This document shows, in pieces, positions 15,737-41,786 of a DNA stretch of 64,000 nucleotides (positions are counted from its first letter, which is position 1; every line of letters starts with the position of its first letter). Under the pieces are notes generated by a model. That model searched no databases. It was given only the letters and a program-made list of their open reading frames with translations, and was not told the origin of the DNA. The position numbers and the translations under genes are program-made. This stretch comes from Candidatus Falkowbacteria bacterium (GTDB lineage: Bacteria; Patescibacteriota; Patescibacteriia; Patescibacteriales; UBA12465). The stretch spans positions 97,188 to 161,187 of the forward strand of contig JBAXJX010000001.1 of assembly GCA_037137655.1 (NCBI GenBank), given 5' to 3'.

Positions 15737-15746
15737 CACTATTTTT

Positions 15747-19327: not shown

Positions 19328-19328
19328 T

Positions 19329-20786: not shown

Positions 20787-20797
20787 TTATAAACCTT

Positions 20798-22363
20798 ATG
20801 ACTACTATTGAAATTCTAAAAAAATATAAAATTGAAAATTTTTCGGAGCAGGGAAATATGATTACCGTTAAAGTAACTAAAGATGTTTTTACATCCTTAG
20901 CCACTTCTTTGGCCAACGAAGAAAATTTACCTTTGTCGTCGCTTTATGCCACTGATGATCGTCAGGTTAGTAATACTTTTGGTGTGCACGTTTTATTTGC
21001 TAATGACGCGGCGCATGACTGGTTATTGGTTTCAACCGAAGTTTTGACAACAGAGCCAAGTTACCCGTCGTTAACTGCCACGGTTATGGCGGCTCATTGG
21101 TATGAACGTTATTTACATGATATGTTTGGCATCACACCGCTTGGTCATCCAGATTTACGTCGTTTAGTGAGTCATGAAAATGTGCCGGAAAATGTTTATC
21201 CATTACGCAAAGATTTCGCCTGGAATACTAAAATGGAACATGCTAATGTGCCATATCCAATGGCGCACGTGGAAGGTGAGGGAATCTATGAAATTCCAGT
21301 CGGACCAATCCATGCTGGTATTATCGAACCGGGTCATTTCCGTTTTAATGTGGCCGGTGAAAGAATTATAACTTTAGAAGGAAAATTATTTTTTACACAT
21401 AAGGGTATTGAAAAATTAGTGGAAGGTAAAGCTCCACTGGAGGCTTTGCCTTTTATTGAGCGCTTGTCGGGCGACATGGCTGCTGGCCATGCTCTAGCTT
21501 TTTGCCAAGCTGTCGAAGCTTTAGCTGGCTGTGAGGTGCCTAAACGGGCGCAGTTATTGCGTGTTTTATTGTTAGAATTGGAACGCGTAACAATGCATAT
21601 TCACGACTTAGCTAATATTGGTGGTATGGGTACAGGTTTTAGTTTTATTGCAGCTAACGGTTTTCGGATTAAAGAAAGAATGGTGCGCTTATCAGATGAA
21701 TTATTAGGCAATCGTTTTTGGCGCGGTGAAATTGTTCCAGGTGGGGTGGCTAAAGATTTGAGTACCGAGAAATTAGCTGCTATTTTACCAGTATTGCAAG
21801 CAGCTCAAGTTGAAATAAACAAAATTGTTAAAATCGCTTTGTCATCCGATGGTTTTTTGGATCGCTTACAAACTACCGGTGTTTTACCACTTGAAGCGGC
21901 TAAAGCTTTCGGCGGTGTTGGTTTGCCGGTGCGTGCCTCTGGCTTTGATCGTGACGTCCGTCGTGACCATCCCGATGCCGTTTACAAAGAATTGGCAGTC
22001 AATGTTCAATTAAAGACTGTTGGTGATGTTCATGCTCGCTATTTGTGTCGTATTAACGAAATTGATGAATCGGTGCGTTTAATTGACGCAGTGCTTAAGC
22101 AATTGACAGGCAATTCCGATAAGAATATTATAAATGAGTGTCAAATTAAAGATGGTGTAACAATTGGGGCAGTAGAGTCATGGCGCGGTGAAATTATTTG
22201 CGCTTTGCATTTTCAGAATGGTAAAATTAGTCGTTGTTTCCCCCGTGACCCATCATTTTGTAATTGGGCATTATTCGCGATTATTGGCCCAGGGAACATC
22301 GTTCCAGATTTCCCGTTATGCAATAAATCCTTGAATTTGAGCTATTCTGGTACTGATATGTAG
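20798..22363 (+). CDS. NuoC+NuoD-type (HycE/HyfG-like) large subunit lacking all four Ni-Fe cysteine ligands
   Basis: VGPIHAGIIEPGHFRFNVAGERI...HKGIEK is typical of the family. The N-terminal metal motif reads ERLSGDMAAGH. The C-terminus reads SLNLSYSGTDM-stop. Confidence 0.85.
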   Translation: MTTIEILKKYKIENFSEQGNMITVKVTKDVFTSLATSLANEENLPLSSLYATDDRQVSNTFGVHVLFANDAAHDWLLVSTEVLTTEPSYPSLTATVMAAHWYERYLHDMFGITPLGHPDLRRLVSHENVPENVYPLRKDFAWNTKMEHANVPYPMAHVEGEGIYEIPVGPIHAGIIEPGHFRFNVAGERIITLEGKLFFTHKGIEKLVEGKAPLEALPFIERLSGDMAAGHALAFCQAVEALAGCEVPKRAQLLRVLLLELERVTMHIHDLANIGGMGTGFSFIAANGFRIKERMVRLSDELLGNRFWRGEIVPGGVAKDLSTEKLAAILPVLQAAQVEINKIVKIALSSDGFLDRLQTTGVLPLEAAKAFGGVGLPVRASGFDRDVRRDHPDAVYKELAVNVQLKTVGDVHARYLCRINEIDESVRLIDAVLKQLTGNSDKNIINECQIKDGVTIGAVESWRGEIICALHFQNGKISRCFPRDPSFCNWALFAIIGPGNIVPDFPLCNKSLNLSYSGTDM

Positions 22364-22383
22364 TGATTTGGCTGTAAATCAGA

Positions 22384-22412
22384 TTGACAAAACGTTTTAT
22401 TTATGATATAAT
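22384..22412 (+). promoter_or_regulatory. Near-consensus extended -10 sigma-70 promoter
   Basis: TTGACA (22384-22389), 17 nt spacer, TGaTATAAT (22404-22412). Confidence 0.75.
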
Positions 22413-22417
22413 ACGCT

Positions 22418-22435
22418 TATCATCAAGTGATGATA
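22418..22435 (+). promoter_or_regulatory. Perfect 8+8 palindrome just downstream of the -10 box (candidate operator)
   Basis: TATCATCA-ag-TGATGATA starts 6 nt after the -10 hexamer. Confidence 0.45.
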
Positions 22436-22484
22436 TTGAACATTAAAAATTAAATTAAATCTAATCTTAAAAAACGGAGGTTTT

Positions 22485-23588
22485 ATGTCGAATGATGGTA
22501 GTTTGATCGATTGGTTAAAAGGTGTTAATGGTGAGTACTCGCAGAGATTTTGTAGTCCTGGCGCCCAAGCTGAAAGAAGATCTTTTTGGTTGCGGTATCC
22601 GGTTGGGCTTTTCTGTTTCGGTTGCATGGACGGTCGCAACAATATTCACAACGCTACGGAGTTACCGGCCGGAATAATGAAAAATTATCGTCATGCCGGT
22701 CCTTGGGAATGGTCAAATTCTTTAGACCAACTTTTTTATGGCGATTTGATGCATTGGATTGATCAAGGTAAAGAATGTCTAGTTTTTGTAAGTTATCATT
22801 TTTCGAAATCGAACAAGGATTGGGGCTGTGCTGCTTTTGAATGTAATACTGACAAAGCCATCGCGTCCAATATTAGCTTCAAGGAAAAAATTGACCGAGT
22901 TTATGGCACCGATAGTGCGGTTTTCTCGGTTCTTCTTGGCTTTGAAACTGATGAAGAATCGATGATAATTCATGGCTGCGATTGTGATCAAGTTTTACGA
23001 GTGGCGGATTTGACTGAATTTAATGAGGCTGAGATTAAAGAAACGCTAACAACTTTATTTCCAAAATTTTCTTTAGAAGTTAAGGATTTGTTATTGCGCT
23101 TGATTTCTGGAAATTTTAATCATGTTTCAAAGAACCGTCGAAAAAATCGTCCAGCCATTGCTCTAAATCATAATGAGCGCGTGGTTGCCGTTGGACAAGG
23201 ATTAGGTTGGTTTTATCGTCCAAATCAGGCGATAATTATTGGAATGCATTCCAATAAATCGGGCGAAGCTATAGTAAAAGCGGTTACGATAGTTTATGAA
23301 AATTTACTTAGCGGTCGCATTTCCAGGGAAAAAGGTTTTATTCTTTTGGCGTCAGCCTCATTTCGGCGCGACGTCAGAGCGGAAAAATTGATGGGTTGTG
23401 TGGGAAGTGAAGAAAGAAGGGCTTGTGAGCGGGCCAAGGAAAACATGCGATTTGCCTTGGAAGTGATTGAAGCTGGTTTGCCAGAGGAAATCTATTCCGA
23501 GCTGTTATCGTATATGCATTTCCTTACAGTCATAACCGATTTGGACACCGGAAAATTCATCGAGGTGAAAGATGTTAATCTCGATTAA
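22485..23588 (+). CDS. Hypothetical protein with beta-carbonic-anhydrase-like (CsoSCA/DabA-style) Zn-site pattern; function unverified
   Basis: The CDS itself is well supported by the GGAGG SD, its own promoter and its own terminator. The functional call rests only on FGC47-M-D49-G-R51 (CxDxR), followed 58 residues later by YH105-x9-C115 (VFVSYHFSKSNKDWGCAA). Confidence 0.4.
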   Translation: MSNDGSLIDWLKGVNGEYSQRFCSPGAQAERRSFWLRYPVGLFCFGCMDGRNNIHNATELPAGIMKNYRHAGPWEWSNSLDQLFYGDLMHWIDQGKECLVFVSYHFSKSNKDWGCAAFECNTDKAIASNISFKEKIDRVYGTDSAVFSVLLGFETDEESMIIHGCDCDQVLRVADLTEFNEAEIKETLTTLFPKFSLEVKDLLLRLISGNFNHVSKNRRKNRPAIALNHNERVVAVGQGLGWFYRPNQAIIIGMHSNKSGEAIVKAVTIVYENLLSGRISREKGFILLASASFRRDVRAEKLMGCVGSEERRACERAKENMRFALEVIEAGLPEEIYSELLSYMHFLTVITDLDTGKFIEVKDVNLD

Positions 23589-23610
23589 AAAAACGTTTTG
23601 AAACATTTAG

Positions 23611-23637
23611 AACCCTGCTATAAAGTAGGGTTTTTTT
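23611..23637 (+). terminator. Rho-independent terminator
   Basis: AACCCTGC-tataaa-GTAGGGTT followed by T7. Confidence 0.75.
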
Positions 23638-23638
23638 A

Positions 23639-23667
23639 TTGCCAGTTTTTTTATTTTATGATAAAAT
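23639..23667 (+). promoter_or_regulatory. Candidate promoter of the T4SS-like cluster
   Basis: TTGCCA (23639-23644), 17 nt spacer, TGaTAAAAT (23659-23667). Confidence 0.55.
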
Positions 23668-23703: not shown

Positions 23704-24159
23704 ATGGACGAGCAGGAACAGGCTGACGAGTTGGCGGCCGCTAAACAAAAAGCTAAAAATGCTGGCGTAACATCTGGCGGTGACAATAATGATAGTGCTA
23801 AGTCATCACCAAAACAGAATAAGATTAAAGAGGGAACTGGCAAACTTTTAAAGCAATTTTGGTTAGATATTCCTGCCAGTTTTGGATTCACTATTCTGTT
23901 TATAGACTTATTCTATCTTTTGTGGAAGATTTTACCTGATTGGTTTGGTAAACCGGGGCATGAATGGGTACAGGCTGAAATCGCCAAGACTTCACCGGAA
24001 GAGGCGAAAAAAGTTGGTGATAAAATTTCTTTGGTGGAAAATTTAGGCTGCTGTTGTGTGAATATTCCTGGTTGTTTCGTCCTTTTATTACTTATTGTTA
24101 TTATTTATGCCATGCTTCATCCAGTTGAATTCGGTTGGATGGCATTAACAGGGGGCTAA
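23704..24159 (+). CDS. Small membrane protein, first gene of the T4SS-like cluster (possible pilin/VirB2-like role, unverified)
   Basis: 151 aa. Charged N-terminus, two hydrophobic helices and a CCC motif in helix 2. No recognisable family motif. Confidence 0.6.
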   Translation: MDEQEQADELAAAKQKAKNAGVTSGGDNNDSAKSSPKQNKIKEGTGKLLKQFWLDIPASFGFTILFIDLFYLLWKILPDWFGKPGHEWVQAEIAKTSPEEAKKVGDKISLVENLGCCCVNIPGCFVLLLLIVIIYAMLHPVEFGWMALTGG

Positions 24160-24177
24160 TAAAATTTATCACAAACA

Positions 24178-27100
24178 ATGAAAAAAATATTTTCAAAAAA
24201 GAATACCTTTATTTTCTCAGTGACACTTTTATCGTCGCTCGCGATTTTTGCTGTGGCTCGTCCGGCTCATGCCAGTGAAGTCATTGCCGGTATTATCGGC
24301 GGTATACTTTCAGTTGTCATTTATTTTATTGGGCAGCTTCTTTCTTTGGTAATTTCTGTTTTAATCTCTATTGCTCAATACAGTGCTTTTGGTACCGCCG
24401 CACCGGTCGTTTTTGGTTGGATGATTGTGCGCGATATTTGTAATATGTTTTTCGTACTCATTCTTCTTATTATTGCCTTTGCGACAATTTTACACGTGGA
24501 AGAATATAACTATAAAAAATGGCTGCCAAAATTAATTATGATGGCGGTCTTAATTAATTTCTCTCGTTTGATTTGTAATATTTTTGTGGATTTTGCCCAA
24601 GTGGTTATGTTAACCTTCGTTAATGGTTTTAAAGATGTTGGCGGCGGTAACTTAACTGAAATGTTGGGTATTAATGATTGGATCGGAACAATGTCAACCG
24701 ACCCAACGGCCACAGTTACTTTTACTACTATTGTTGGTACTTATTTATTGGCTTTGATTTATTCCATAATTGCTTTAATTACAGTTGTGACTATGGTGGC
24801 TGTTTTGGCTATGCGCATGGTCATGCTTTGGATTTATATAACTTTATCACCCTTAGCTTATTTGCTAAGTGCTTTTCCGCAAGGTCAACAATATGCTTCT
24901 AAGTGGTGGTCAGAATTCAGTAAAAATTTAGTGATCGGACCAATCCTAGCTTTTTTTATCTGGTTATCATTTGCTTCTTTAGGTGGCACAGCTGATTTAG
25001 CCGCTAACAACGCGACTGATCCGTTGAAAGGTATTCCTAGTGATCCAAGTAGTACGCCAAGTGTTGGTTTAACTGAATCCGGCTCGGCTGATAACATGAT
25101 TAAATTTATTATTTCCATCGGTATGTTACTTGGCGGTTTGCAAATTGCGCAGGAATTGGGCGGTGAAGCGGGTAAGATGGCCGGTAAAGTTTCTTCCAAA
25201 GGTTTCTCGATGGCGAAAGCTGGTGCGGGTGCAGCCGGACTTTATGCAGCTAAACGTGCTGGCGCAGGTGCAGCTGGCGCAGCCGGCAGCGCTGCTAATT
25301 GGGCTGGACAAAAAATTAATTTAGCCGGTAAAAGCGTCGGCCTTAAGGGTGATACTAATTTAATGGGTCGAGCCTTGCAAAAAACTGGAGCAATTGGAAC
25401 TGGTTTGCAGGCTGATATGATTACTACCAGAAAAAAAGCGGCGGTAAAATCACGCCAAGAGTTATTAGAAAAACTTGGTTTTGGCGAGACTGGCGCCACA
25501 GCTCTTGTTGAGGCTACTGAGCCAATAAAGAGACGTTTAGATTTTGGTGACAAAATTAAGAAAAGTATTAGCGCTAATACAACCAAAGGACAATCGTTGC
25601 TTACCGATGGTCAAGAATTAATAGATAGAGGTGAAGATGCTAAAGTTAAGGCTATGACCGCTGGTAAATTAAGACTGACCGGCGAAAAAGAAAGACAAGA
25701 AGGTGAAAACACTATCAATGATGCTGACAGAAAAATTAAATTCAATGAGAATGAAATTATTAATTTAGCTAAGAATAATATTAACGATCCTCGTATTGCG
25801 CAAATTAGACAGGAAAACAAAAAATTGGAAGACGACAAGATTCACGGACAGTCAATGATTGATAGTGGTCAATCCAAGCTTGATGATGTTGCCGCTATTG
25901 AAGCTGCTGCTGCCACTGCTGACGCTGACATTGCCAAGGGCGTGGCTATGAAAAATCAAGGTACTGAAATATTAAATAAAAAAGGATTTTCTTCTACTGC
26001 TTTTGGTAAAAATGTTATTAAAATGATTCCTAATATTGGTGATATGGCGGTTGGGACTACAAATAAAGCAGCTAAAAAAATGGCTGAAGAATCTTTGACA
26101 GCTAAAGATTTTGTTAAAAATATTAAAAATACTAAAGAGTGGCCGGATTATATAAGAGATACTGATGCGCATCAATGGGCTGGTAAGAGTAGTATGAATT
26201 CCCAACAAAAAGCCAACTTTAAAGCGATGGCCGGTGATCCTGAAGCCAGTGAAGGTGTTCGTGTTCAACTTGAAAAATGGAGCGGAGAAAGAAATGCGGA
26301 TGGTAGTCATGATAAAGATTTTCTTAAAGTGGCTGACGCTATTTCACGCGCGATTGCTGGACATCAAAAAGGTGGTGGTGATATGAAGAATTTAAGTGGA
26401 ATTTCAAGTCTCTTAACTACTGTTAGCTCGGAAGTTTCCAATCCAAAGGTTATGAAATCCCCAAGTGATTATAAAGACAAGGTTAGCTATTCTAATTATA
26501 ATCGGGAGCGATCTGTTGCTCAGGGCGGATTTAGCGCGGCGAAATTTAATGAAAACCAAGAGTCAGATAAAACTAAGAGCGCCAATAGTATTGCAATTGA
26601 TTTTGCTGAGTTGCAAGGCATTGCCTCTTTTGGTGGTAAGGATTTTAAAACTAATGCTGATGCGGCCAATTTAGATTCTGGTCAAATTAAAGACTTTACC
26701 GTTCATCTGGAAAGCAAATTACAGGGCATGAAACCAAATGATGGTGGCTACCAAGAATTACAAACCGCGATTAATAATTTAAAAAATAATAAAGTTGAGG
26801 CTTTATCAATTAGAAATTCTGGTGTTAAAAAAGGTTTCCGGGGTGATTTGGCGGCTGAATACCATGAAAATACTCATAAAGCTGGTGTTAAATCAGAAGA
26901 TTTGGCTCATGGCTTAGAGTCGATGATGATGGATATGCGCTTGACTGGTAGTGATAAAACTACAAAAGAAAACAATTCCTTTGAGGTTGGTCAAAAGGCA
27001 GCGGCTCTTGAAAGACAGGGCGTACCACATGATAAAATTTTAGAACAAATGAAGCTTGAGATTGTTGACCGTGGCGGTAAACATAAGGAAGCTTTTGCCC

Positions 27101-27345
27101 AACCAGCGCCAGTTAATGTTGACTTGAAGAACATTTTATCTGGTGGTGGACAGCCAACAATTCAAAATATTAATAACACTACTAACAATAATACATCTAT
27201 TAATAATGTTGTTAATAATGTCTTGGAAAATGACAAGAGTAAAGGTTCTGATATCTTGCAAGATATAAAAAAACAAGGTGACAAAACATTTAAAACTGTT
27301 GCAGATTTAAAGAAAAGCAATAATAAAGGACGATTTATCTCATAA
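24178..27345 (+). CDS. VirB6/TrbL-like polytopic membrane protein with a roughly 700-aa hydrophilic C-terminal extension (1055 aa)
   Basis: Signal-like N-terminus and about 6-8 TM helices in residues 1-330, with the LSPLAYLLSAFPQGQQYASKWW region typical of TrbL/VirB6-type proteins. An A/G-rich linker, a coiled-coil-like charged region and an Asn-rich tail follow. Confidence 0.6.
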   Translation: MKKIFSKKNTFIFSVTLLSSLAIFAVARPAHASEVIAGIIGGILSVVIYFIGQLLSLVISVLISIAQYSAFGTAAPVVFGWMIVRDICNMFFVLILLIIAFATILHVEEYNYKKWLPKLIMMAVLINFSRLICNIFVDFAQVVMLTFVNGFKDVGGGNLTEMLGINDWIGTMSTDPTATVTFTTIVGTYLLALIYSIIALITVVTMVAVLAMRMVMLWIYITLSPLAYLLSAFPQGQQYASKWWSEFSKNLVIGPILAFFIWLSFASLGGTADLAANNATDPLKGIPSDPSSTPSVGLTESGSADNMIKFIISIGMLLGGLQIAQELGGEAGKMAGKVSSKGFSMAKAGAGAAGLYAAKRAGAGAAGAAGSAANWAGQKINLAGKSVGLKGDTNLMGRALQKTGAIGTGLQADMITTRKKAAVKSRQELLEKLGFGETGATALVEATEPIKRRLDFGDKIKKSISANTTKGQSLLTDGQELIDRGEDAKVKAMTAGKLRLTGEKERQEGENTINDADRKIKFNENEIINLAKNNINDPRIAQIRQENKKLEDDKIHGQSMIDSGQSKLDDVAAIEAAAATADADIAKGVAMKNQGTEILNKKGFSSTAFGKNVIKMIPNIGDMAVGTTNKAAKKMAEESLTAKDFVKNIKNTKEWPDYIRDTDAHQWAGKSSMNSQQKANFKAMAGDPEASEGVRVQLEKWSGERNADGSHDKDFLKVADAISRAIAGHQKGGGDMKNLSGISSLLTTVSSEVSNPKVMKSPSDYKDKVSYSNYNRERSVAQGGFSAAKFNENQESDKTKSANSIAIDFAELQGIASFGGKDFKTNADAANLDSGQIKDFTVHLESKLQGMKPNDGGYQELQTAINNLKNNKVEALSIRNSGVKKGFRGDLAAEYHENTHKAGVKSEDLAHGLESMMMDMRLTGSDKTTKENNSFEVGQKAAALERQGVPHDKILEQMKLEIVDRGGKHKEAFAQPAPVNVDLKNILSGGGQPTIQNINNTTNNNTSINNVVNNVLENDKSKGSDILQDIKKQGDKTFKTVADLKKSNNKGRFIS

Positions 27346-27350
27346 TAAAT

Positions 27351-28385
27351 ATGGCTTATCTAGAAGATTGTATAAAAAAATATAGTGATTTGCCCGGGGA
27401 GACTAAGGCGGCTTTTGGTGCGCCAGAAGTAATTGCTAAAATCACCACCCTGGAAAAACGGTATAAAGTTAAACTAGATTTTGTAGTTCTTTTGTTGGCA
27501 ATCAATGAATTAGATTTGGAGGACATCGCTGGATATTTAGCGGAAAAGTTTAATTTAGAAATAGAATTGGCTGACGAGATAGAGCTTAAGCTAAGAGATG
27601 AGATTTTATCTTTGGTCACCAAAAAACTACCGGCGAGCGATGTGGCGGCACCAGAATTTAGCTTGTTAACTCTTAGCGTTAAAGATAAAAAGATTGTGCT
27701 ATCTGAAGCTTTTTCTGAAAACTTGCTAACAATCTTTAATGATGATCAGAGTTATTTGCAAGATTTGAATGTTATCGCTTTTCAGACCTTTAATGCTGAT
27801 CCTAACTTCGAGGACAAGATGACTGAACTCCTATATAAAAACCAAGAAGTTTTAACACATAAACCGTTTATTGCCGACAATGAAGATGTGACGGCAACGG
27901 TTGCGCGCTGGTTGAAAGATTTTATTGCCAAAAACGGCAGCGATATTTTTTCTAATATTGTGCTGGCAAAATATTTAACTGCTTCGGAAAATGCTAAAAT
28001 TTTAGATCCGGAAGAACGGAATTTGTTAAAAAAACTTTTGAAATTATATCGTAATTTAGTATTTTTTCCGGATAGCATGAAAGATGTTCCAATTGAGGAA
28101 TGGGAATTATTTCCCATTAACCGTGATCAAGTAGAAAAAGTATTTCATCCAACAAAATTAAGTACACCCGATGTTTCTGCTCCAATAATTGATCATGCCG
28201 AAGCCGATGCGGAAGCAACCGCGGCGGCTAAGAAAATTTTAGAAGAGTTGGAAAATGGCCAAACTAAAATTATGCCAAAAGAGGAGAGTCCAGAGATAAA
28301 GTCATTGCGAGCGATGGCTGAACAATATCCACTTGGTAGTTTGGAGCGTCGCGCAATTGAATCGGAAATTAAAAAGAAATTATAA
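27351..28385 (+). CDS. Hypothetical protein, paralogous N-terminal domain shared with the next gene
   Basis: 344 aa. N-terminal YLEDCIKKYSDLPGETKAAFGAPEVIAKITTLEKRYKVKLDF aligns with the N-terminus of the 28431 product. Confidence 0.7.
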   Translation: MAYLEDCIKKYSDLPGETKAAFGAPEVIAKITTLEKRYKVKLDFVVLLLAINELDLEDIAGYLAEKFNLEIELADEIELKLRDEILSLVTKKLPASDVAAPEFSLLTLSVKDKKIVLSEAFSENLLTIFNDDQSYLQDLNVIAFQTFNADPNFEDKMTELLYKNQEVLTHKPFIADNEDVTATVARWLKDFIAKNGSDIFSNIVLAKYLTASENAKILDPEERNLLKKLLKLYRNLVFFPDSMKDVPIEEWELFPINRDQVEKVFHPTKLSTPDVSAPIIDHAEADAEATAAAKKILEELENGQTKIMPKEESPEIKSLRAMAEQYPLGSLERRAIESEIKKKL

Positions 28386-28430
28386 GAAAACCTGGATCCC
28401 CGCCTGCGCGAGGATGACGGTTGAAAAAAT

Positions 28431-30005
28431 ATGTTTGAATACTTAGAAAAATTTAAAAATCTCTCGGCCGATCTTAAGGCTATAATTTCCACTCCGGAAG
28501 TTTTAAAGGCGACAGCTGATTTAGAAAAAAAATATAATGTTGATTTAGCAATCACAATTATGCGCGTGATGGTTAAAGAAATAAAGCTTGATGAAATTCC
28601 ACTTCATCTTTTTACGGATCTAGCCCTAGGACAGGCGGCAGTTGATACTTTAACAATAGAGTTGAAGGAGCAGGTCTTTGCTAAAGCTTTAGATTATTTA
28701 CAAGCGGACGATAAAAAAGTTATAGCGCCAGAACCGGTTATAATTACACCTAAAGTTGTTGTGCCAGAAATTAAACCTGAGGCGATATCCGAACCGGAAA
28801 TAGTAAAAGAAATTGATGAAGAGATCGCTGTCGAAGCAGCTATGCCTGAAATGAAATTAGATGAATATTCAGCTAGGATTTATGAAGCAATCGAGAAGAT
28901 TGTGGAAGAATTTAATGTTGGTGGCGAGCATCTGATGAAATTCCAGGACGCTATAAAATTATATTTACGCGAAATTAGATCTAGAATTGATACCCGCGCC
29001 TTTTTACTAAAAGCAATCCAGGACGGCGGTTTAGGTTTAAGTGATTTAATGGTTGATAAAATACTTAGTCGCGCTGATGCTTTAAGAAATGAAATTAATG
29101 TTAGCTTGAAAAAAGATACTAAGCCAAGTTTTTCCATTATGGATAAAATTAATGAGCTTAATAAAATGGGAGCTGATCGTGATGTAAGTTACGATTTATC
29201 AAAAATTTTAGACCTTAAACACGAGTTAAAAGGTGGCTTAGATTTGAGTCATGAAATTGCCGCGCCAACAACAGCGATTCCAAATATGGAAATTGCCGCA
29301 CCGGTGGTTGTAGATAAAAAAATTGAAGCACCGATTGCTCCAATAACTCCAGTTAAAGCGACTCCGATTAGTTTAGGGGCAATTAACCCAGCCGAACTTT
29401 TGGACGCCGAGGATATTTTACCATCAGTTAAAAATGTTGATGAGACACCAATTTTAAGTTCAATTCCAAGTGGAATTTTGGATTCAGCTCTAGCTTCAAT
29501 TCCAAAAGAACCATTTTTTGCAAAAACCGAATTAGCACCAAAACCAATTGCGGAGGTAAAGGCAACTCCAATTATGAATAAAGTCACACCGGTAGTTTTA
29601 ACCCCAACTCCAACACCGGCACCAAGTTCTAGCAAGTTTATTCCTGGTAAAGTTAAAATTGAAGATATTAAATCAATTAAAACCATGAGCCCAATTGATG
29701 AATTGTTGTATATGGACTTGGTAAATTTTAGAAGATTGGGTATTAGTGTGGATGAAATAATGGAAAAAATAAAAGATCGGGTTGAGTTGATGCGCGCCGA
29801 TGACTATGAAAAAGGTTTGGCGGCAATTGCTGCTTGGCGCCGATCACCAGTTAGTAAACTTTACTTAAAAATATTGTCCCGAGCTACATCAGAAGATAAA
29901 ACAATTCCAGCTGTGATTGAAGATTTGAAAAATAGTAAACAAGATTATTTAAGTATGGATGAAATCGAGGGAATTATAATGTTAAATAATAGATTGCGCT
30001 TTTAA
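28431..30005 (+). CDS. Hypothetical protein with the same N-terminal domain, a Pro/Ala/Ile-rich middle and a conserved C-terminal region
   Basis: 524 aa. N-terminal YLEKFKNLSADLKAIISTPEVLKATADLEKKYNVDLAI. Confidence 0.7.
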   Translation: MFEYLEKFKNLSADLKAIISTPEVLKATADLEKKYNVDLAITIMRVMVKEIKLDEIPLHLFTDLALGQAAVDTLTIELKEQVFAKALDYLQADDKKVIAPEPVIITPKVVVPEIKPEAISEPEIVKEIDEEIAVEAAMPEMKLDEYSARIYEAIEKIVEEFNVGGEHLMKFQDAIKLYLREIRSRIDTRAFLLKAIQDGGLGLSDLMVDKILSRADALRNEINVSLKKDTKPSFSIMDKINELNKMGADRDVSYDLSKILDLKHELKGGLDLSHEIAAPTTAIPNMEIAAPVVVDKKIEAPIAPITPVKATPISLGAINPAELLDAEDILPSVKNVDETPILSSIPSGILDSALASIPKEPFFAKTELAPKPIAEVKATPIMNKVTPVVLTPTPTPAPSSSKFIPGKVKIEDIKSIKTMSPIDELLYMDLVNFRRLGISVDEIMEKIKDRVELMRADDYEKGLAAIAAWRRSPVSKLYLKILSRATSEDKTIPAVIEDLKNSKQDYLSMDEIEGIIMLNNRLRF

Positions 30006-30008
30006 ACT

Positions 30009-30452
30009 ATGCAACAATTTACCGTACCACAATTTATTGACGTGGAATCAAAAATTATCGGCCCGCTAACGGTGCGCCAGTTTTTGATAATGTTGGCGGC
30101 AGCGGCTTTTATCTTTATTGCTTATAAAGCTTTTGATTTTACTTTGTTCGTTGTTGTGTCGGTGTTTATATTTTTAGCGGCCGTGGTCTTTGCTTTTGTT
30201 AAAGTTAATGGTCAAGGTTTTCATTATTTTATTTTAAATCTCCTTAGTACTTTACGTAAACCAGGTATCCGAATTTGGAATCATCATTTAACAACTTATG
30301 CGGACAGCGAAGAGCGGGAAATAAAATTTGAGAGTACAGAAATAAATAAAAATTTAAAAGCCTCTCAGGTGGCGGAATTATCCTTAGTGGTGGATACTAA
30401 GGGAAGATATCGCGGCAATAATCCTGACGCAGAAGATATTAAAAATCAATAA
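30009..30452 (+). CDS. PrgI-family (VirB3-like) T4SS membrane protein
   Basis: MQQFTVPQFIDVESKIIGPLTVRQFLIM followed by two TM helices, which is the typical PrgI-family N-terminus. It lies just upstream of the VirB4-like ATPase. Confidence 0.65.
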   Translation: MQQFTVPQFIDVESKIIGPLTVRQFLIMLAAAAFIFIAYKAFDFTLFVVVSVFIFLAAVVFAFVKVNGQGFHYFILNLLSTLRKPGIRIWNHHLTTYADSEEREIKFESTEINKNLKASQVAELSLVVDTKGRYRGNNPDAEDIKNQ

Positions 30453-30462
30453 TTTTTAAAAT

Positions 30463-31146
30463 ATGGCTAACGAAAATAAATTAGTACGCAATAAAGTTAC
30501 TGTTTCAACACAACAGTATTTAGATATTGCCGAAATTAAAGATGACACTGTGATTTTGCGCGATGGAACTTTGCGCGCGGTTTTATCGGTTTCTAGTATT
30601 AATTTTGCCTTGAAAAGTGAGGATGAACAAAATGCGGTTATTTCATCTTATGTTAGTTTTTTAAATAATATTAATTCCATGTTGCAAATTGTGATTCAAT
30701 CACGCGAATTGGATATTCGCGGCTATATGGAATATTTAGCGGAGAAAGAAAAGAGTCAAACTAATAAATTACTTAAAATCCAAACCGGGGAATATATTGA
30801 ATATATCAAAGAATTAACTTCTATCGGTAAAATCATGACTAAAAGTTTTTATGTGATTGTGCCTTATAGTCCAACCTCTGATACGCATAAAGGATTTTTC
30901 TCGAGCTTAGCTGAAACTTTAAAACCAGCTACACTATTGAAGCTGAAAGAAGTGCGTTTTTTAAAGTATAAAGAATCTTTGGCACGGCGGATTGATAGCG
31001 TGGTTGGGGGCTTGGGTTCGATGGGTGTCGGTACTAAACAATTAAACACGCAGGAACTTATTGAATTATTTTATAAAACTTATAACCCGGAGGTTTCCAA
31101 AAATCAGAATTTAGTTGACATGGAAAAGCTTCGCGTTGAGATGTAA
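30463..31146 (+). CDS. T4SS-cluster protein without a P-loop; N-terminal segment resembles the start of Gram-positive VirB4/TraE-type proteins
   Basis: QQYLDIAEIKDDTVILRDGTLRAVLSVSSINFALKSEDEQNAV. No Walker motifs. 227 aa. Confidence 0.5.
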   Translation: MANENKLVRNKVTVSTQQYLDIAEIKDDTVILRDGTLRAVLSVSSINFALKSEDEQNAVISSYVSFLNNINSMLQIVIQSRELDIRGYMEYLAEKEKSQTNKLLKIQTGEYIEYIKELTSIGKIMTKSFYVIVPYSPTSDTHKGFFSSLAETLKPATLLKLKEVRFLKYKESLARRIDSVVGGLGSMGVGTKQLNTQELIELFYKTYNPEVSKNQNLVDMEKLRVEM

Positions 31147-31164
31147 TTATTTTCTTAAATAAAT

Positions 31165-33111
31165 ATGCCTAATTTTAAAATATCACAACTTGATGACGAA
31201 ACGAAAGCAGCCAGCAAACAGCCGGAAGTTTATGCTGTGGGTGATAAGGTTGTTGTCCGCAAAACGATTGAAGAGAACGTTGAACTAACGCAAGAAATTA
31301 TTGAGGAAGAGTTAGCTTATCGTAAAGGAACATTGTCGGTGCGTGATTTGATTTCACCATCGAGCATGAAAATTACCTCAACTTATATGATGTTGGGGCA
31401 GAAATTTGCCCGCACCTTATTTGTGGTTAACTACCCACGTTATATTAGTGTTGGTTGGTTTGCACCGATTATCAATTTGAATAATGCTTTTGATGTGGCC
31501 ATGTTCTTCTACCCCGTTAATAGTGCTGTGATTTTAAAACAATTAAAAAATCGCGTGGGTAATATTGAAGCTCAGGTGATGTCTGATTCAGAAAAAGGCC
31601 AACCACGTGATCCAATTCGAGAAACAGCCTTGCGTGATATTGAATTTTTGCGCGACGCCTTAACTCAGGGAACAGAAAAGTTTTTTCAATTCGCTTTATA
31701 CGTTACAATCTACACAGAAACCCTTGAAGAATTGGATCGCTTATCTGATCAAGTAGAAGACGTTTTTGGTTCACGTTTAGTTTTTTCTAAGCGCGCCTTT
31801 TTTCAATCCGAACAAGGTTTTAATTCCACTCTACCGCTTTGTAATGATGAGCTATACATTACTTTTAACATGAATTCGTCACCAGCCGCTTCATCTTTTC
31901 CGTTTATTTCTTCAGAACTAACCAGTGACCGCGGTATCCTTTATGGTATTAATCGCCATAATAATAGTTTAATTTTATTTGATCGTTTTTCTTTGCCGAA
32001 TGCTAATTCGGTGGTTTTTGCCACTTCTGGTGCTGGTAAAAGTTATTGTATTAAATTGGAAGTATTGCGTTCTCTGATGATGGGCAGTGATGTGATTGTT
32101 ATTGATCCTGAGTATGAATATAAACATTTGTCCGAAGCTGTTGGAGGTACTTATATTAATATTTCTTTGTCGAGTGAAAACAAGATTAATCCATTTGATT
32201 TGCCTCGTTCCATCGGCGGTGAAGCTAAACCAAAAGATATTATTCGAAGTGCGGTTATAACTTTGAAGGGTTTGGTGCGCTTAATGGTAGGTAATCTAAC
32301 TAACGAAGAAGATTCGATTGTGGATCGAGCCCTACTTGAAACTTACGCTAAAAAAGATATTACGCCTGATTCTGATTTGTCTAAAATCGAACCACCAACT
32401 TTATCTGACTTCTGCCAAGTATTAGAAGGTATGGAAGGGGCTGATTCCTTAGCGGAACGTTTGAAAAAATATACCGAAGGTACTTTTGCTGGATTACTTA
32501 ACAGTCCGACTAATGTGGAGATGGATAATCAATTAGTTTGCTTCTGTGTGCGTGATTTAGAGGATGAGTTGCGTCCAATTGGAATTTATACTATTGTTAA
32601 TTATATTTGGAATGTGGTTCGCAGTCAGGTTAAAAAGAGAATTTTGATTATTGATGAGGCATGGTGGATGATGCAAAACCCCGATTCTGCTAAGTTTATT
32701 TTTGCCCTTGTGAAACGCTGCCGTAAGTATTATTTAGGTGTGACCACAATTACCCAAGATGTAAGTGACTTTTTGGAATCACCTTATGGTCAAGCGATTG
32801 TGACTAATTCCCAATTACAGATTTTGCTTAAACAATCACCAGCCGCGATTGATCGCGTGCAGAAAACTTTTATGTTAACCGAGGGTGAAAAATTCTTATT
32901 GTTGGAATGTGGTTTAGGTGAGGGAATATTCTTTGCTGGTAATAAACATGTGGCAATTAAAATTGTGGCTTCTTATTCTGAAGATCAATTGATTACTTCC
33001 GATCCTCGCCAATTATTAGAGCTAGAGGAAGCGAAGAAAAAATATGAGGAAGAAATGGCTGAAGAAGAAGCAGCAGCCGATGAAGCCCGAAAAATAAAGG
33101 AAGCTAAATAA
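31165..33111 (+). CDS. VirB4/TraE/PrgJ-like T4SS ATPase
   Basis: Walker A VVFATSGAGKSY (about 32030-32053), Walker B RILIIDEAWWM (about 32641-32665), and the YPRYISVGWF N-domain motif. Confidence 0.85.
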   Translation: MPNFKISQLDDETKAASKQPEVYAVGDKVVVRKTIEENVELTQEIIEEELAYRKGTLSVRDLISPSSMKITSTYMMLGQKFARTLFVVNYPRYISVGWFAPIINLNNAFDVAMFFYPVNSAVILKQLKNRVGNIEAQVMSDSEKGQPRDPIRETALRDIEFLRDALTQGTEKFFQFALYVTIYTETLEELDRLSDQVEDVFGSRLVFSKRAFFQSEQGFNSTLPLCNDELYITFNMNSSPAASSFPFISSELTSDRGILYGINRHNNSLILFDRFSLPNANSVVFATSGAGKSYCIKLEVLRSLMMGSDVIVIDPEYEYKHLSEAVGGTYINISLSSENKINPFDLPRSIGGEAKPKDIIRSAVITLKGLVRLMVGNLTNEEDSIVDRALLETYAKKDITPDSDLSKIEPPTLSDFCQVLEGMEGADSLAERLKKYTEGTFAGLLNSPTNVEMDNQLVCFCVRDLEDELRPIGIYTIVNYIWNVVRSQVKKRILIIDEAWWMMQNPDSAKFIFALVKRCRKYYLGVTTITQDVSDFLESPYGQAIVTNSQLQILLKQSPAAIDRVQKTFMLTEGEKFLLLECGLGEGIFFAGNKHVAIKIVASYSEDQLITSDPRQLLELEEAKKKYEEEMAEEEAAADEARKIKEAK

Positions 33112-33126
33112 GTTTAATAAAAAAAT

Positions 33127-33741
33127 ATGATAAACGAAAACAAAAAGATGGGTATATTTATAGTGGTTATCGCTATTGTTTTGTTGGCGGCCATGTTAAT
33201 TTATACTTACGGTTTTAAGAAGAATCAAAATAATGCCAATAACGTGCCAGCGGCTATCACTGGGCCAGTTAAAGATTTGATGGCGGAGGCTAAAAATAAA
33301 CAACCAGCGCCGACATATAGTTTTGACGCCCAAGCCGAAGCTAATCGTCAATTAGGCTCTGAAGATTTGCGTAAAATGGCTTTACCATTCGCGGAGAGAT
33401 TTGGTTCATTCTCCAATCAATCCAATTATAGTAATTTTGAAGATTTGAAAATTTTCATGTCTGATAACATGAAGACTTGGTCTGATTCTTATGTAGTTGA
33501 TTTGAAAAAGAGTGCTGGTGATACCACGGTTTATTATGGTATTACCACTATTGCTATTTCGGGTGAAGTGCAAAAATTTGATGATGCTGCCGGTCAAGCG
33601 CAAGTTTTGGTTTCAACCCAAAGACGCGAGCTTGGGGCTGATTCATCAGCTGCCAAAGTTTTTAATCAAGATATAACTTTAAACTTTGTTAAAATTAAAG
33701 GTGAATGGAAAGTTGACTCAGCTTATTGGGCGAAAAATTAA
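33127..33741 (+). CDS. Membrane-anchored protein, possibly a VirB8/PrgL-like (NTF2-like) T4SS component
   Basis: A single N-terminal TM helix. The C-terminal alpha+beta-looking domain ends in IKGEWKVDSAYW. Position after VirB4 fits. The family was not verified. Confidence 0.45.
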   Translation: MINENKKMGIFIVVIAIVLLAAMLIYTYGFKKNQNNANNVPAAITGPVKDLMAEAKNKQPAPTYSFDAQAEANRQLGSEDLRKMALPFAERFGSFSNQSNYSNFEDLKIFMSDNMKTWSDSYVVDLKKSAGDTTVYYGITTIAISGEVQKFDDAAGQAQVLVSTQRRELGADSSAAKVFNQDITLNFVKIKGEWKVDSAYWAKN

Positions 33742-33752
33742 TTTTTAATTTT

Positions 33753-33911
33753 ATGATAAAAAAAGAAACAAAAAAAATAGAACAAGATATCGAAATTACC
33801 GACGAAGACGGTAATAGCAAAACTTTTATGCTTTTTTCGATCGTGGCTTTTTTGGTTGTCGCCCTATTCTTCTTTTGGCTAACAAATGTTGTGCGGGCGG
33901 TAGCGGTTTAA
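33753..33911 (+). CDS. Small single-TM protein (52 aa)
   Basis: MIKKETKK... followed by FMLFSIVAFLVVALFFFWL. The start was moved to the ATG at 33753, after the upstream stop. Confidence 0.45.
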   Translation: MIKKETKKIEQDIEITDEDGNSKTFMLFSIVAFLVVALFFFWLTNVVRAVAV

Positions 33912-33948: not shown

Positions 33949-35334
33949 TTGTTTATGGCTGATAAGCAACAAACAATTTACGTGTGCACAAAATGCGACG
34001 CCCAATTCCCAAAGTGGAGTGGGCGTTGTTTGGAATGTGGTGCCTGGGGAACTTTAGCGGAAAGTGTTTCAACTAAAGATGAGAAGCCAACGATGCGCGA
34101 GAAGATGACTCGGGCTACTGGTCCGGCAGCGAATTTTATTAATTTGGCTGACGTGGAATCGGTGCAAGGTGAACGAATTTTAACCGGCATGCCGGAAGTC
34201 GATCGTGTCTTGGGTGGTGGCTTGGTGCCGGGATCGTTAGTGCTTTTAGGCGGAGAACCGGGAATTGGTAAGTCGACTATTACGGCGCAGATTGTTGATT
34301 CCATTGCTAAGAAAAATGGGAAACCGGTGCTTTATGTTTCTGGAGAAGAATCGGCCGTCCAAGTTAAATCTCGCTTAGAGCGATTAAATTGTGATTTGAA
34401 AAATTTGAGTTTTGCCGGTGAAACTAATATTGAAAAAATTATTGCTGGGGCGATAAAATTAAAACCGCAACTCGTGGTAATTGATTCGATTCAAACTGTG
34501 CATTCCAGCCAGGTCCCGTCAGAAGCTGGTAATATTAACCAAATTCGGGCCTGTGCGGTGGGCTTTTTAGAACTCGCTAAAACCCATAATATTGCGGTGT
34601 TACTCATTGGTCATATTACCAAAGATGGTCAAATTGCTGGACCAAAATCTTTGGAACATATCGTTGATACGGTGGTTTATTTGGAAGCGGAAACAATTAA
34701 TAATCATTCTTTATTGCGTGCGGCGAAAAATCGTTTTGGCAGTATTAATGAAATTGGCGTCTTTGAAATGACGGGTGCTGGTTTTCGGGAAGTGAGCGAT
34801 CCATCATCCATCTTTTTGGAAAATGGCCAACCAAACATGGTAGGTACGGCGATTGGTTGTGTGCTCGAAGGTAGCCGCGCTTTTTTGATTGATGTGCAGG
34901 CATTAGTGACTAAGACTATTTTTGGTTATCCGCAACGCAAGGCTTCTGGTTTCGATTTGAATCGCTTGCAAGTTTTAGCGGCGGTGTTATCCAAAAAACA
35001 AAAATTAAATTTGGGGGAGTCGGATATTATTTTAAATATTGTTGGTGGCTTAAAAATTAATGACCCAGCTTTAGATTTGGCAGTAGCCTTGGCGATTATT
35101 TCGTCATTGCAAAACAAAGAGCTTGATCGCCGTTGTTTGATTTTAGGTGAGTTAGGACTAAGTGGGGAATTGCGCCCGGTATCCAAAATTGAGTTAAGAT
35201 TAAGTGAGGCGGAGAAATTAGGCTTTACGACAGCTCTTATTCCAGACGTCAAAAATGAAAATTTAAATAAGTTTAAAAAAATAAAACTCTTGAAAGTAAA
35301 AAATATCTCCGAGGCGATTAGTCAGATATTTTAA
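33949..35334 (+). CDS. radA: DNA repair protein RadA/Sms
   Basis: N-terminal zinc ribbon CTKCDAQFPKWSGRCLECGAW, Walker A GGEPGIGKST, KNRFG motif and a Lon-like C-terminus. The start could be 33955. Confidence 0.95.
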   Translation: MFMADKQQTIYVCTKCDAQFPKWSGRCLECGAWGTLAESVSTKDEKPTMREKMTRATGPAANFINLADVESVQGERILTGMPEVDRVLGGGLVPGSLVLLGGEPGIGKSTITAQIVDSIAKKNGKPVLYVSGEESAVQVKSRLERLNCDLKNLSFAGETNIEKIIAGAIKLKPQLVVIDSIQTVHSSQVPSEAGNINQIRACAVGFLELAKTHNIAVLLIGHITKDGQIAGPKSLEHIVDTVVYLEAETINNHSLLRAAKNRFGSINEIGVFEMTGAGFREVSDPSSIFLENGQPNMVGTAIGCVLEGSRAFLIDVQALVTKTIFGYPQRKASGFDLNRLQVLAAVLSKKQKLNLGESDIILNIVGGLKINDPALDLAVALAIISSLQNKELDRRCLILGELGLSGELRPVSKIELRLSEAEKLGFTTALIPDVKNENLNKFKKIKLLKVKNISEAISQIF

Positions 35335-35372
35335 AAATTGGGTATCACAAATTGTGATACCCAATTTTTTTG
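35334..35372 (+). terminator. Rho-independent terminator after radA
   Basis: aaaaaTTGGGTATCACA-aat-TGTGATACCCAAttttttt. Confidence 0.85.
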
Positions 35373-35379
35373 TAAAGAA

Positions 35380-35410
35380 AAGAGCCATCGTTGTTTTGAT
35401 GGCTCTTGAT
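35380..35410 (-). terminator. Rho-independent terminator for the minus-strand 56-aa gene
   Basis: The minus strand reads AAGAGCCATC-aaaacaac-GATGGCTCTT followed by a T-rich tract. Confidence 0.65.
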
Positions 35411-35589: not shown

Positions 35590-35612
35590 GACTGTATATA
35601 TTTAAGTTTGAG

Positions 35613-35674
35613 TTGTTTAAGAACTAATTTTGATAATATAATTATATCACGTTTTTAGCAAAAAGTCAATATAT
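35613..35674 (-). repeat. 62-bp promoter/leader module, copy 1
   Basis: Differs at 1 of 62 positions from 36245-36306. The minus strand carries TTGACT (35669-35664), 17 nt spacer, TATAAT (35646-35641). Confidence 0.8.
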
Positions 35675-35699
35675 AGCGAGATAAGCCAATTTTTTTGGG

Positions 35700-36229: not shown

Positions 36230-36244
36230 AATATAAATTTTAAA

Positions 36245-36306
36245 TTGTTTAAGAACTAATTTTGATAATATAATTATATCACGTTTTTAACAAAAAGTCA
36301 ATATAT
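36245..36306 (-). repeat. 62-bp promoter/leader module, copy 2
   Basis: Same sequence as 35613-35674 with one g/a difference. Carries TTGACT-17-TATAAT on the minus strand. Confidence 0.8.
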
Positions 36307-36307
36307 T

Positions 36308-36690
36308 GTAAAATAAGCTAGCAAAATCAGCATTTTTAGCCTCTTATGAAATACCGCACCTGAAGCGGGCGAAGCTTTCTTGGAAAGGTTGAGCAAGCGC
36401 GAAATCTTTTCAAAAAGATTTGCACGCTTCACCCCACACGGTTAACGGCATTCTACCGGAGACTATAAAGAGCGAATATCATGATTAATTAAAATAACCG
36501 TCTTCTCAGTCTTCGGTATCTCGGCTTGAATCATCTAATGCTTATAATTTCGCTTCGTCTTTCGACTTCGCTATCTTCAACGCTTTTATCGTCTGGGGCG
36601 AATCTGGCAAAACTTTTGAAAAAAGATCTCACTAACGTTCGAACTTTTTTAAAAGTTTCGACCAGCTTCGGATACGGTGACTTGGTGAGG
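36308..36690 (-). ncRNA. Candidate structured RNA or structured recG 3'UTR of unknown class
   Basis: About 380 nt with no credible ORF and visibly higher GC than other intergenic DNA in the window. A 13-bp long-range helix pairs 36590-36602 with 36428-36440; it has an extra G-U pair if the minus strand is transcribed. A 14-bp hairpin lies at 36397-36427. A terminator-like hairpin plus U-tract lies at 36308-36340 on the minus strand. Confidence 0.3.
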
Positions 36691-39448: not shown

Positions 39449-39537
39449 GGAGAGGTGGCTGAGCGGTCGAAAGCGGCAGGTTGCTAACCTGTTATACGTG
39501 TAAAAACGTATCCGGGGTTCGAATCCCCGCTTCTCCG
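39449..39537 (+). tRNA. tRNA-Ser (anticodon GCU)
   Basis: Acceptor GGAGAGG/CTTCTCC, anticodon loop TTGCTAA, long variable arm, T loop GGTTCGAATCC. Confidence 0.93.
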
Positions 39538-39543
39538 CATATC

Positions 39544-39572
39544 AAAAAGACTGGATTAATCCAGTCTTTTTT
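39544..39572 (+). terminator. Rho-independent terminator after tRNA-Ser
   Basis: aaaAGACTGGA-ttaa-TCCAGTCTttttt. Confidence 0.8.
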
Positions 39573-39620
39573 GTTTTTTTTCTAATTTTATGGTATTTTA
39601 TAAGCATGTTTATCTAATTT

Positions 39621-40490: not shown

Positions 40491-40508
40491 AATCTAATTA
40501 TAAATTAT

Positions 40509-41267: not shown

Positions 41268-41279
41268 ATAATAAAATTT

Positions 41280-41684
41280 ATGAAAGTAGTTATTGCTGGC
41301 AGCGCTAGTTTGCAAAAGGAAATACAAAAGTGGGTTACACATTGGAATGCGCAAAAAGATTGCGTGGTTTTAAATTATCCGCAGGCTATTCCGGCGGATA
41401 ATTTTGATGAGCTTTATCCTGGAGTGCATAAGAAATTTTTTGCGGATATTTTAGAAGCCGATATTTTATTTGTGGCCAATGAAGAGAAAAAGGGAATCGC
41501 TGGCTATATCGGTTATGAAACTTTTGCCGAACTTGGTTTTGCTGTCGCTCAGAAAATAATCGCCGGCCAAAATATAAAAATAATTTTAGCTAACATGCCA
41601 GCACTAGAATTATCTTGCCATGAAGAAATAGCTTTATGGAAAAAGCTGGGCTGGATTGATGAAATTTTAAATATATTATATTAA
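41280..41684 (+). CDS. Nucleoside 2-deoxyribosyltransferase-like (Rossmann/SLOG-type) protein
   Basis: MKVVIAGSAS...ADILFVANEEKKGIAGYIGYETFAELGFAVAQK follows the pattern of this superfamily. Not verified. Confidence 0.45.
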   Translation: MKVVIAGSASLQKEIQKWVTHWNAQKDCVVLNYPQAIPADNFDELYPGVHKKFFADILEADILFVANEEKKGIAGYIGYETFAELGFAVAQKIIAGQNIKIILANMPALELSCHEEIALWKKLGWIDEILNILY

Positions 41685-41687
41685 TAT

Positions 41688-41786
41688 ATGAAACAAGAAG
41701 AAATCGAAAGAGTTTTTTTGGTAAAAAAATTGCCATCCGATTTAGATTGGAGTGTAATAATTAATAATGAATATGATAAATATTAA
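41688..41786 (+). pseudogene. Possible remnant of a CYTH-domain gene (32 codons)
   Basis: MKQEEIERVFLVKKLPSDL resembles the CYTH N-terminal signature EIERKFLV..LP. The reading frame stops after 32 codons and overlaps the next gene start. Confidence 0.25.

Follow-up and report, generated by a model that had tools for sequence, protein, structure and literature searches.

A probable chromosomal type IV secretion system of the Patescibacteria clade in a Candidatus Falkowbacteria genome

The 64,000-nt stretch analyzed here (contig JBAXJX010000001.1 of assembly GCA_037137655.1, positions 97,188 to 161,187 of the forward strand; hereafter the window) comes from a Candidatus Falkowbacteria bacterium and contains nine plus-strand genes, g1 to g9 (Table 1). 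Most of this cluster very probably constitutes a type IV secretion system (T4SS) that is chromosomal, belongs to the Patescibacteria clade and goes back to monoderm conjugation machinery of the mating-pair formation class MPF-FATA. Its arrangement is that typical of the class ABY1, and we hold its identity, architecture and non-conjugative status with the same confidence. The genes predict an inner-membrane T4SS part set, consisting of a VirB6-like protein (g2), a PrgI protein (g5), a VirB4 ATPase split between two genes (g6 and g7) and a VirB8-like protein (g8), accompanied by the lineage-specific proteins g1 and g3/g4.

The locus is an instance of the Patescibacteria T4SS already described by Quinonero-Coronel et al. 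(2025; PMC12102498) in a survey of 3035 Patescibacteria genomes; the reading is correct and already published. According to that survey, the VirB4 proteins of Patescibacteria form a monophyletic clade nested in MPF-FATA, TrsD is the commonest companion, and homologs of PrgI/VirB3 and VirB6 are present. VirB8 homologs are very few and nearly all occur in ABY1, where the T4SS loci are commonly found with comF, recG and radA. Our own placement in MPF-FATA and in this clade uses profile and best matches, the clade itself being defined by the tree in that paper. The original prediction, made from the sequence of the window, had pointed to T4SS-like loci known in the candidate phyla radiation (CPR) and Saccharibacteria; the lineage here is Candidatus Falkowbacteria, class ABY1, not Saccharibacteria. 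At NCBI, the identical VirB4 protein is annotated as belonging to a Candidatus Falkowbacteria metagenome-assembled genome.

Predicted components of the apparatus

For comparison we used 160 related loci found with the window's own genes, 80 from species-representative genomes and 80 from metagenomes. The VirB4 protein g7 scores 358 bits (7.6e-107) against the NCBIfam model NF045971 (VirB4-like conjugal transfer ATPase, CD1110 family), above the cut-off of 325, and this equivalog match covers positions 182-734 of the 752-position model. Further matches are to Pfam P-loop_TraG (5e-28) and to the solved C-terminal domain of VirB4 (PDB 4AG5, 1.1e-48). The Walker A motif GAGKSY (residues 289-294, 32029-32046) and the Walker B motif IIDEAW (residues 495-500, 32647-32664) named for this ATPase in the original prediction are both present, and the ATPase appears active as judged from its sequence. 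Among the best 120 VirB4 homologs, most matches with a named source are from Patescibacteria or Falkowbacteria, at 79-100% identity; the best plasmid matches, from Bacillota and Actinomycetota, are only 28-36% identical.

The gene before it, g6, encodes a protein similar to NCBIfam TrsD (4.8e-9) and to the N-terminal part of the VirB4_plasma model (1.5e-11), both under cut-off, and is assigned to PF26593 (TraC-like) in precomputed annotation. No P-loop is present in g6, in agreement with its earlier description as a P-loop-less protein resembling the VirB4 N terminus. Because g6 aligns to residues 26-102 and g7 to residues 209-758 of the single-chain VirB4 of plasmid pCDC3875, complementary parts of one protein, we read VirB4 as split in the TrsD plus TrsE fashion of the pGO1 subclass; g6 is a separate open reading frame (ORF) in 79 of the 80 related genome loci. 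The PrgI/VirB3-like assignment of g5 is also borne out, with a score of 34.8 bits (E 2.4e-8) against Pfam PrgI for a gathering cut-off of 27. The protein has two transmembrane segments, and the same Pfam family is annotated on the source contig.

Sequence-profile searches (Pfam, NCBIfam) and PDB-sequence searches with g8 and with a g8 profile returned no meaningful match, and g8 is assigned by fold alone. An AlphaFold2 model built from 60 homologs (predicted local distance difference test, pLDDT, 88.3) has a transmembrane helix at the N terminus and, after it, an NTF2-like domain with helices and a four-stranded sheet. Its best PDB match in Foldseek is CagV (E 3e-5, TM-score 0.67-0.71), with further matches to R388 TrwG/VirB8, PrgL (7AED), TcpC (3UB1), DotI, TraM and TraE. 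The modeled fold thus supports the membrane-anchored VirB8/PrgL-like protein of the original prediction, since its best matches are proteins of the VirB8 family.

The large protein g2 begins with a signal peptide (AHA|SE) and a polytopic domain at residues ~33-350, with five to six transmembrane segments in the first ~340 residues, and continues in a poorly conserved tail of ~700 residues rich in A, K, G and N. Several results speak against the VirB6/TrbL-like assignment that had been given to it: neither g2 nor any of 37 orthologs matches Pfam TrbL, g2 has no NCBIfam match either, a search of PDB sequences with g2 gave no meaningful match, an hhalign comparison of g2 with CD1112 VirB6 is negative, and the structural matches of its N-terminal domain have E-values of only ~0.01. 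On the other side, the distant homologs P0267, P0313 and P0310, which are 31-43% identical to g2 over more than 90% of the domain, reach 1e-5 to 3e-4 with Pfam TrbL, slightly below cut-off. An AlphaFold2 model of residues 1-351 (pLDDT 82.7) has five R388 TrwI/VirB6 chains as its top five Foldseek matches (E 0.011-0.036, TM-score 0.41-0.49), with nothing comparable after them. The VirB6-like assignment of g2 is therefore moderately supported, through distant homologs and predicted structure, where Pfam fails.

The g2 tail carries an HExxH motif (HENTH) whose extended form HExxHxxGxxxE is aligned and invariant in 19 of 38 orthologs, this g2 included (others are loci L009, L027, L030, L036 and L040); the remaining 19 have an unrelated tail. 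Around the motif the tail is hypervariable, at 13-23% identity. No Pfam family matches it, and a PDB search with a tail profile gave no meaningful match. The motif may be a zincin-like site. A positive-inside pattern past the last transmembrane segment suggests that the tail begins in the cytoplasm.

The original prediction called g3 and g4 two paralogous unknowns, and they are indeed related (BLASTP 29% identity, E 7e-9; hhalign 98% probability over ~160 aa), with the likeness confined to the N-terminal ~100-160 residues. No match to Pfam, NCBIfam or PHROGs was found for g3. For g4 the same three databases and PDB gave no match, and the protein has no transmembrane segment and no P-loop; its conserved blocks are residues 1-95, 141-280 and 401-524, with variable linker between them, and its family has 1992 cluster representatives at E<=1e-3. 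We assessed the linkage of g4 in 80 metagenome loci fetched with its own C-terminal motif, counting over loci long enough to be informative. Since g4 is followed by g5 in 70 of 70, by g6 in 61 of 61, by g7 in 44 of 44 and by g8 in all 40 such loci, g4 is, by gene order, a strict T4SS companion. The small protein g1 has transmembrane segments near residues 56 and 116, a conserved KLGxEWxP loop and a GCCC motif, and its gene is found directly 5' of g2 in 23-27 of the 80 genome loci.

The 52-aa transmembrane peptide that had been counted as the ninth gene exists as an ORF and is not conserved in relatives. We rejected it as a conserved component, the slot between g8 and radA being empty in about 50 related loci, and consider its role in the T4SS doubtful. 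Elsewhere, this slot (loci L008-L022, L050, L061, L065 and L073; L001-L007 and L043) is occupied by an extra gene for either a bitopic DsbA-like thioredoxin of ~255-326 aa with a CPFC motif or a bitopic protein of ~100 aa with CGGDP..P.CP at its end; the 52-aa form of g9 is similar to the N-terminal half of the smaller protein.

Conservation, radA and the chromosomal setting

The order g2-g3-g4-g5-g6-g7-g8-radA recurs across the 80 species-representative genomes, with the same downstream context and varying upstream neighbors, and the 80 metagenome loci show the same order. About half of the related genomes, however, lack g1, the VirB6-like gene and g3 at the position 5' of g4 and have other genes there, encoding for example proteins of 312, 604 and 629 aa (L023, L055, L058 and about 35 other loci). 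Because of these replacements, the gene order defines g4-g5-g6-g7-g8-radA as the invariant module; in the genomes concerned, VirB6 would be encoded elsewhere or be too diverged for detection. VirB4 is 78-85% identical across the 80 species, and the median identities in the same loci are 82% for VirB4, 71% for g6, 62% for RadA and 56% for RecG.

The radA gene is found directly 3' of g8 in 76 of 80 genome loci and in 30 of 35 metagenome loci. The gap between the two genes in relatives is often -65 to +80 nt, and often they overlap or are at most 40 nt apart. In a terminator scan, plus-strand terminators were found only before g1 and after radA. Because radA lies on the same strand, with no terminator before it and with tight spacing in relatives, the predicted transcription unit probably runs through it. 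The original prediction had listed radA among the flanking core genes; it does adjoin the cluster, as part of the conserved unit and not as a mere flank. The ATP synthase genes, named as the other flank, lie further 5' (8858-15186), the immediate neighbors on that side being a hydrogenase-like cluster and a gene for a protein resembling carboxysome shell carbonic anhydrase (CsoSCA). On the opposite strand, recG follows radA in 50 of the 80 genome loci, and many of the others are cut by contig ends. No comF was found in the window. A conserved neighbor of 172 aa, considered as a ComF candidate, turned out to be a small membrane protein.

The cluster has a GC content of 0.36-0.39, like its flanks, and a search for att-like direct repeats bracketing it gave only low-identity chance matches. 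The conserved order, the native GC content and the degree to which VirB4 is identical among 80 species speak for a system fixed in the chromosome and not an integrative conjugative element (ICE); conservation of the block is vertical. The rest of the window is a housekeeping chromosome, with the dnaK operon, ATP synthase, a complex-I/group-4-hydrogenase-like cluster, radA, recG, recQ and gltX. A Pfam scan of every ORF of at least 100 aa in the 64 kb found no relaxase, VirD4/TcpA coupling protein, VirB11, VirB1-type lysin or integrase, as the original prediction had said, and no SLT, CHAP, M23 or lysozyme domain occurs in the cluster or the window. A relaxase or coupling protein tied to the same cluster elsewhere would have pointed to an ordinary ICE; none was found within about 10 kb in the 160 related loci. 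Two points weigh against the non-conjugative reading: the absence of a relaxase and a coupling protein covers 64 kb of a ~1-Mb genome, and VirD4 homologs are far from virB4 in most Patescibacteria genomes according to the survey (PMC12102498). The earlier claim of a chromosomal, non-conjugative apparatus nevertheless agrees with the conserved order, the native GC content and the lack of any mobility gene in the window.

Comparison with known systems and possible function

Among MPF-FATA systems, we compared the cluster with the trs genes of pGO1/pSK41 (TrsC-TrsD-TrsE), prgH-prgL of pCF10 and the CTn2/CD1110 type (Clostridium botulinum pCDC3875). They have the same gene order of VirB6, PrgI, VirB4 and VirB8-like protein and, as here, no outer-membrane core components. 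The pGO1 subclass likewise has a TrsD-like protein before VirB4, and the best NCBIfam model for our VirB4 is that of CD1110, of which CTn2 is the prototype. The cluster is collinear with the order VirD4-x-VirB6-PrgI-x-VirB4-x-SLT of pCDC3875, minus VirD4 and SLT. Comparing profiles of g1, the g2 N-terminal domain, g3, g4, g5, g6 and g8 with single pCDC3875 proteins in hhalign gave no probability above 15%, a profile-versus-single-sequence comparison being too weak. In contrast to the MPF-FATA systems, the locus has no VirD4, SLT/CHAP hydrolase, relaxase or surface adhesins nearby, has genes for two additional cytoplasmic proteins between those for VirB6 and PrgI, and is chromosomally fixed beside radA.

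The likeness to Patescibacteria-clade systems, including the essential one of Southlakia epibionticum (SEML1_0006-0019), is closer. These are chromosomal as well, with TrsD beside VirB4 and with PrgI/VirB3 and VirB6; as here, VirB8 is mostly an ABY1 feature, relaxases and nearby coupling proteins are lacking, and radA and recG are neighbors in ABY1. The survey reports that a VirB1-type hydrolase is often absent or unlinked in Patescibacteria and hence not required for the clade (PMC12102498). The Southlakia system differs in having an array of VirB2-like pilins and peptidase and lysozyme genes by virB4, and comF, common in ABY1 loci (PMC12102498), is missing from this window. Descriptions of clade members in the available text of the two main sources (PMC12102498, PMC10633639) make no mention of the g3/g4 family, the g1 hairpin or the HExxH tail.

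What the T4SS does in Patescibacteria is a recognized open question, and the system is essential in the one species tested. Wang et al. (2023; PMC10633639) describe the T4SS of Saccharibacteria as essential for epibiotic growth, with coupling protein and relaxase missing. Reviews, which describe its function as unknown, bring up the delivery of effectors or the uptake of nucleic acid. The latter is raised as a possible function in PMC11665869 and in a 2026 preprint, which ties T4SS-like tubes to feeding on host RNA. Our locus adds no new kind of system and offers a clean, compact ABY1 example with several handles: the VirB8-fold assignment, the g4 family before PrgI, the near-obligatory adjacency of radA and the HExxH motif in the VirB6 tail.

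By analogy with characterized T4SSs, a VirB4 hexamer would dock on the membrane via PrgI and the TrsD-like protein, and ATP hydrolysis would drive a macromolecule through a channel of VirB6 and VirB8. Passage would lead across a single membrane and the wall where the cell touches its host, with no conjugative processing of DNA. Because radA is joined to the unit and recG stands beside it, our leading guess for ABY1, which we put forward tentatively, is that the system takes up host or environmental nucleic acid and hands it to the recombination machinery.

The ComB system of Helicobacter pylori and the archaeal Ced system offer a parallel for such uptake, being derived from T4SSs and independent of relaxase and coupling protein, like this cluster. 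The likeness extends to the association with recombination genes at this locus and to a weak similarity of g7 to CedB (7.9e-12) and CedD (7e-4) of NCBIfam, far under cut-off. However, ComB belongs to a diderm and includes VirB7, VirB9 and VirB10, and the membrane components of Ced differ from those of this cluster. Several observations count against uptake. Without comEC, Southlakia is no longer transformed but stays viable, and its T4SS is essential; transformation there relies on comEC and not on the T4SS, which excludes ordinary competence as its role. The radA link is perhaps plain synteny, as recG and a further opposite-strand gene are conserved too, and five of 35 more distant loci have no radA at that place.

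An alternative that we consider nearly as likely is an effector translocator that exports proteins, among them perhaps toxin-like products of nearby genes or the variable tail of VirB6, into or onto a host bacterium in support of epibiotic parasitism. Wang et al. favor protein export or an alternative role given the missing coupling protein and relaxase (PMC10633639), a PNAS perspective notes speculation about effectors, and effector systems without a coupling protein exist (Ptl, Brucella VirB). An ART-PolyVal ADP-ribosyltransferase gene is located 6.6 kb downstream, but it lies outside the conserved block, and no effector, secretion signal or chaperone was identified. The hypervariable g2 tail, with its HExxH motif invariant in half of the orthologs, speaks for export, yet the positive-inside pattern suggests a cytoplasmic start. 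Export would also leave the association with radA and recG unexplained.

A more specific form of the uptake reading, in which a nucleic-acid importer is coupled both transcriptionally and functionally to RadA, g3/g4 replace the coupling protein in substrate handling and the HExxH motif gives the channel subunit an enzymatic activity, is a speculative combination that we regard as unlikely. No VirB2/TrbC-type pilin was detected in the cluster: we considered g1 for this part and rejected it, as none of the 28 family members (g1 and 27 orthologs) matches a Pfam pilin family, and the pilin-like genes of the window encode type IV pilus (N_methyl) proteins located elsewhere. This makes it improbable that the genes build a T4SS-type pilus or adhesion structure for host attachment with no translocation role of its own, even though VirB2-like pilin arrays by virB4 are reported in many Patescibacteria, tubular structures are found at the host interface and other T4SSs require VirB4 to build their pili. 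Last, a part or remnant of an ICE, with relaxase, coupling protein and integrase beyond the window, would fit the conjugative CD1110/MPF-FATA type of the VirB4, the gene order shared with conjugative plasmids, the tRNA genes 5 kb downstream and the minority of Patescibacteria that carry relaxases (PMC12102498), but it is very improbable and close to refuted by the same chromosomal context in 80 species with VirB4 78-85% identical, by the native GC content without att-like repeats or any mobility gene in 64 kb, and by the survey's report of relaxases in just 103 of 3035 genomes, rarely near virB4.

Gene layout and other features of the window

The ORF listing of the window reproduces g1-g9 as nine plus-strand ORFs at the coordinates first given, with intergenic gaps of 3-45 nt. 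Independent gene calls on two public contigs with an identical VirB4 give proteins of 151, 1055, 344, 524, 147, 227, 648 and 197 aa followed by radA, and the 61-aa long form of g9 is called on only one of the two. The candidate promoter proposed earlier at 23639-23667 was found again (TTGCCA-17-TAAAAT, extended by TG). In this AT-rich DNA, sequences of the promoter type are common and show no enrichment, with 68 found and 52 expected; the promoter is therefore not significant by score, and its weight comes from its placement between the upstream terminator and g1. At the other end, an 18-bp palindrome, perfect apart from its 1-nt loop (35333-35369), overlaps the radA stop codon, and a second, bidirectional terminator-like hairpin follows at 35380-35407.

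Table 1. Predicted features of the T4SS-like cluster and its immediate surroundings (positions in the window)
Feature	Coordinates	Strand	Remarks
Terminator-like hairpin, 11-bp stem and T run	23609-23634	+	ends upstream hydrogenase-like/CsoSCA-like unit
Candidate sigma-70-type promoter, TTGCCA-17-TAAAAT, extended TG	23639-23667	+	10/12 match
g1, 151-aa membrane hairpin protein	23704-24159	+	
g2, 1055-aa VirB6/TrbL-like protein, extended	24178-27345	+	
HExxH motif (HENTH), g2 residues 896-900	26863-26877	+	ortholog alignment
g3, 344-aa cytoplasmic protein	27351-28385	+	N-terminal domain common with g4
g4, 524-aa cytoplasmic protein	28431-30005	+	immediately 5' of PrgI gene
g5, 147-aa PrgI/VirB3-like protein	30009-30452	+	Pfam PF12666
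g6, 227-aa TrsD-like protein, VirB4 N-terminal-domain homolog without P-loop	30463-31146	+	
g7, 648-aa VirB4 ATPase, CD1110 family	31165-33111	+	NF045971
g8, 204-aa bitopic VirB8/PrgL-like protein	33127-33741	+	predicted fold
g9, ORF with a single transmembrane segment, 61/52 aa	33726/33753-33911	+	
radA (sms)	33949-35334	+	TIGR00416 3.1e-157
Probable transcription-unit end: palindrome at radA stop, then bidirectional terminator-like hairpin, 11-bp stem	35333-35407	+	
recG, convergent neighbor	36697-38736	-	Pfam RecG_wedge, DEAD, Helicase_C

Upstream of the cluster, the region 15197-23588 directly after the ATP synthase operon holds a gene set like that of complex I or a group-4 [NiFe]-hydrogenase, with a NuoB-like protein, two antiporter-like subunits, a NuoH/K-like fusion and a NuoC-NuoD fusion with an N-terminal NiFeSe_Hases match, followed by the CsoSCA-like protein of 367 aa. 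This respiratory-type content is unusual for a CPR genome. Between radA and recG, an 83-nt direct repeat of 90% identity occurs at 35604-35686 and 36236-36318, each copy with a minus-strand promoter-like site (TTGACT-17-TATAAT). One copy is placed 5' of a hydrophobic, Cys-rich ORF of 56 aa (35589-35419), the second 5' of a 162-aa membrane protein (36229-35741).

Further downstream, a low-GC stretch (0.32) at 39449-42240, directly after tRNA-Ser, encodes a PdaC/DUF3298-like protein, the ART-PolyVal ADP-ribosyltransferase (40509-41267), an ORF of 134 aa and a DUF5680 protein. The stretch may have been acquired as a small islet, or it may be a toxin module. At 52350-53189, a zeta-toxin/AAA_33-like kinase of 170 aa follows an unannotated ORF of 105 aa, and the two are a possible toxin-antitoxin pair. 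The N-terminal type IV pilin methylation motif is combined with a Fib_succ_major domain in the products of 48224-49477 and 60293-61477 and with InlB-repeat and LamG domains in that of 6715-8436, and the protein at 200-955 has Fib_succ_major only. These scattered Fib_succ_major/LamG proteins may be pilus-tip adhesins.

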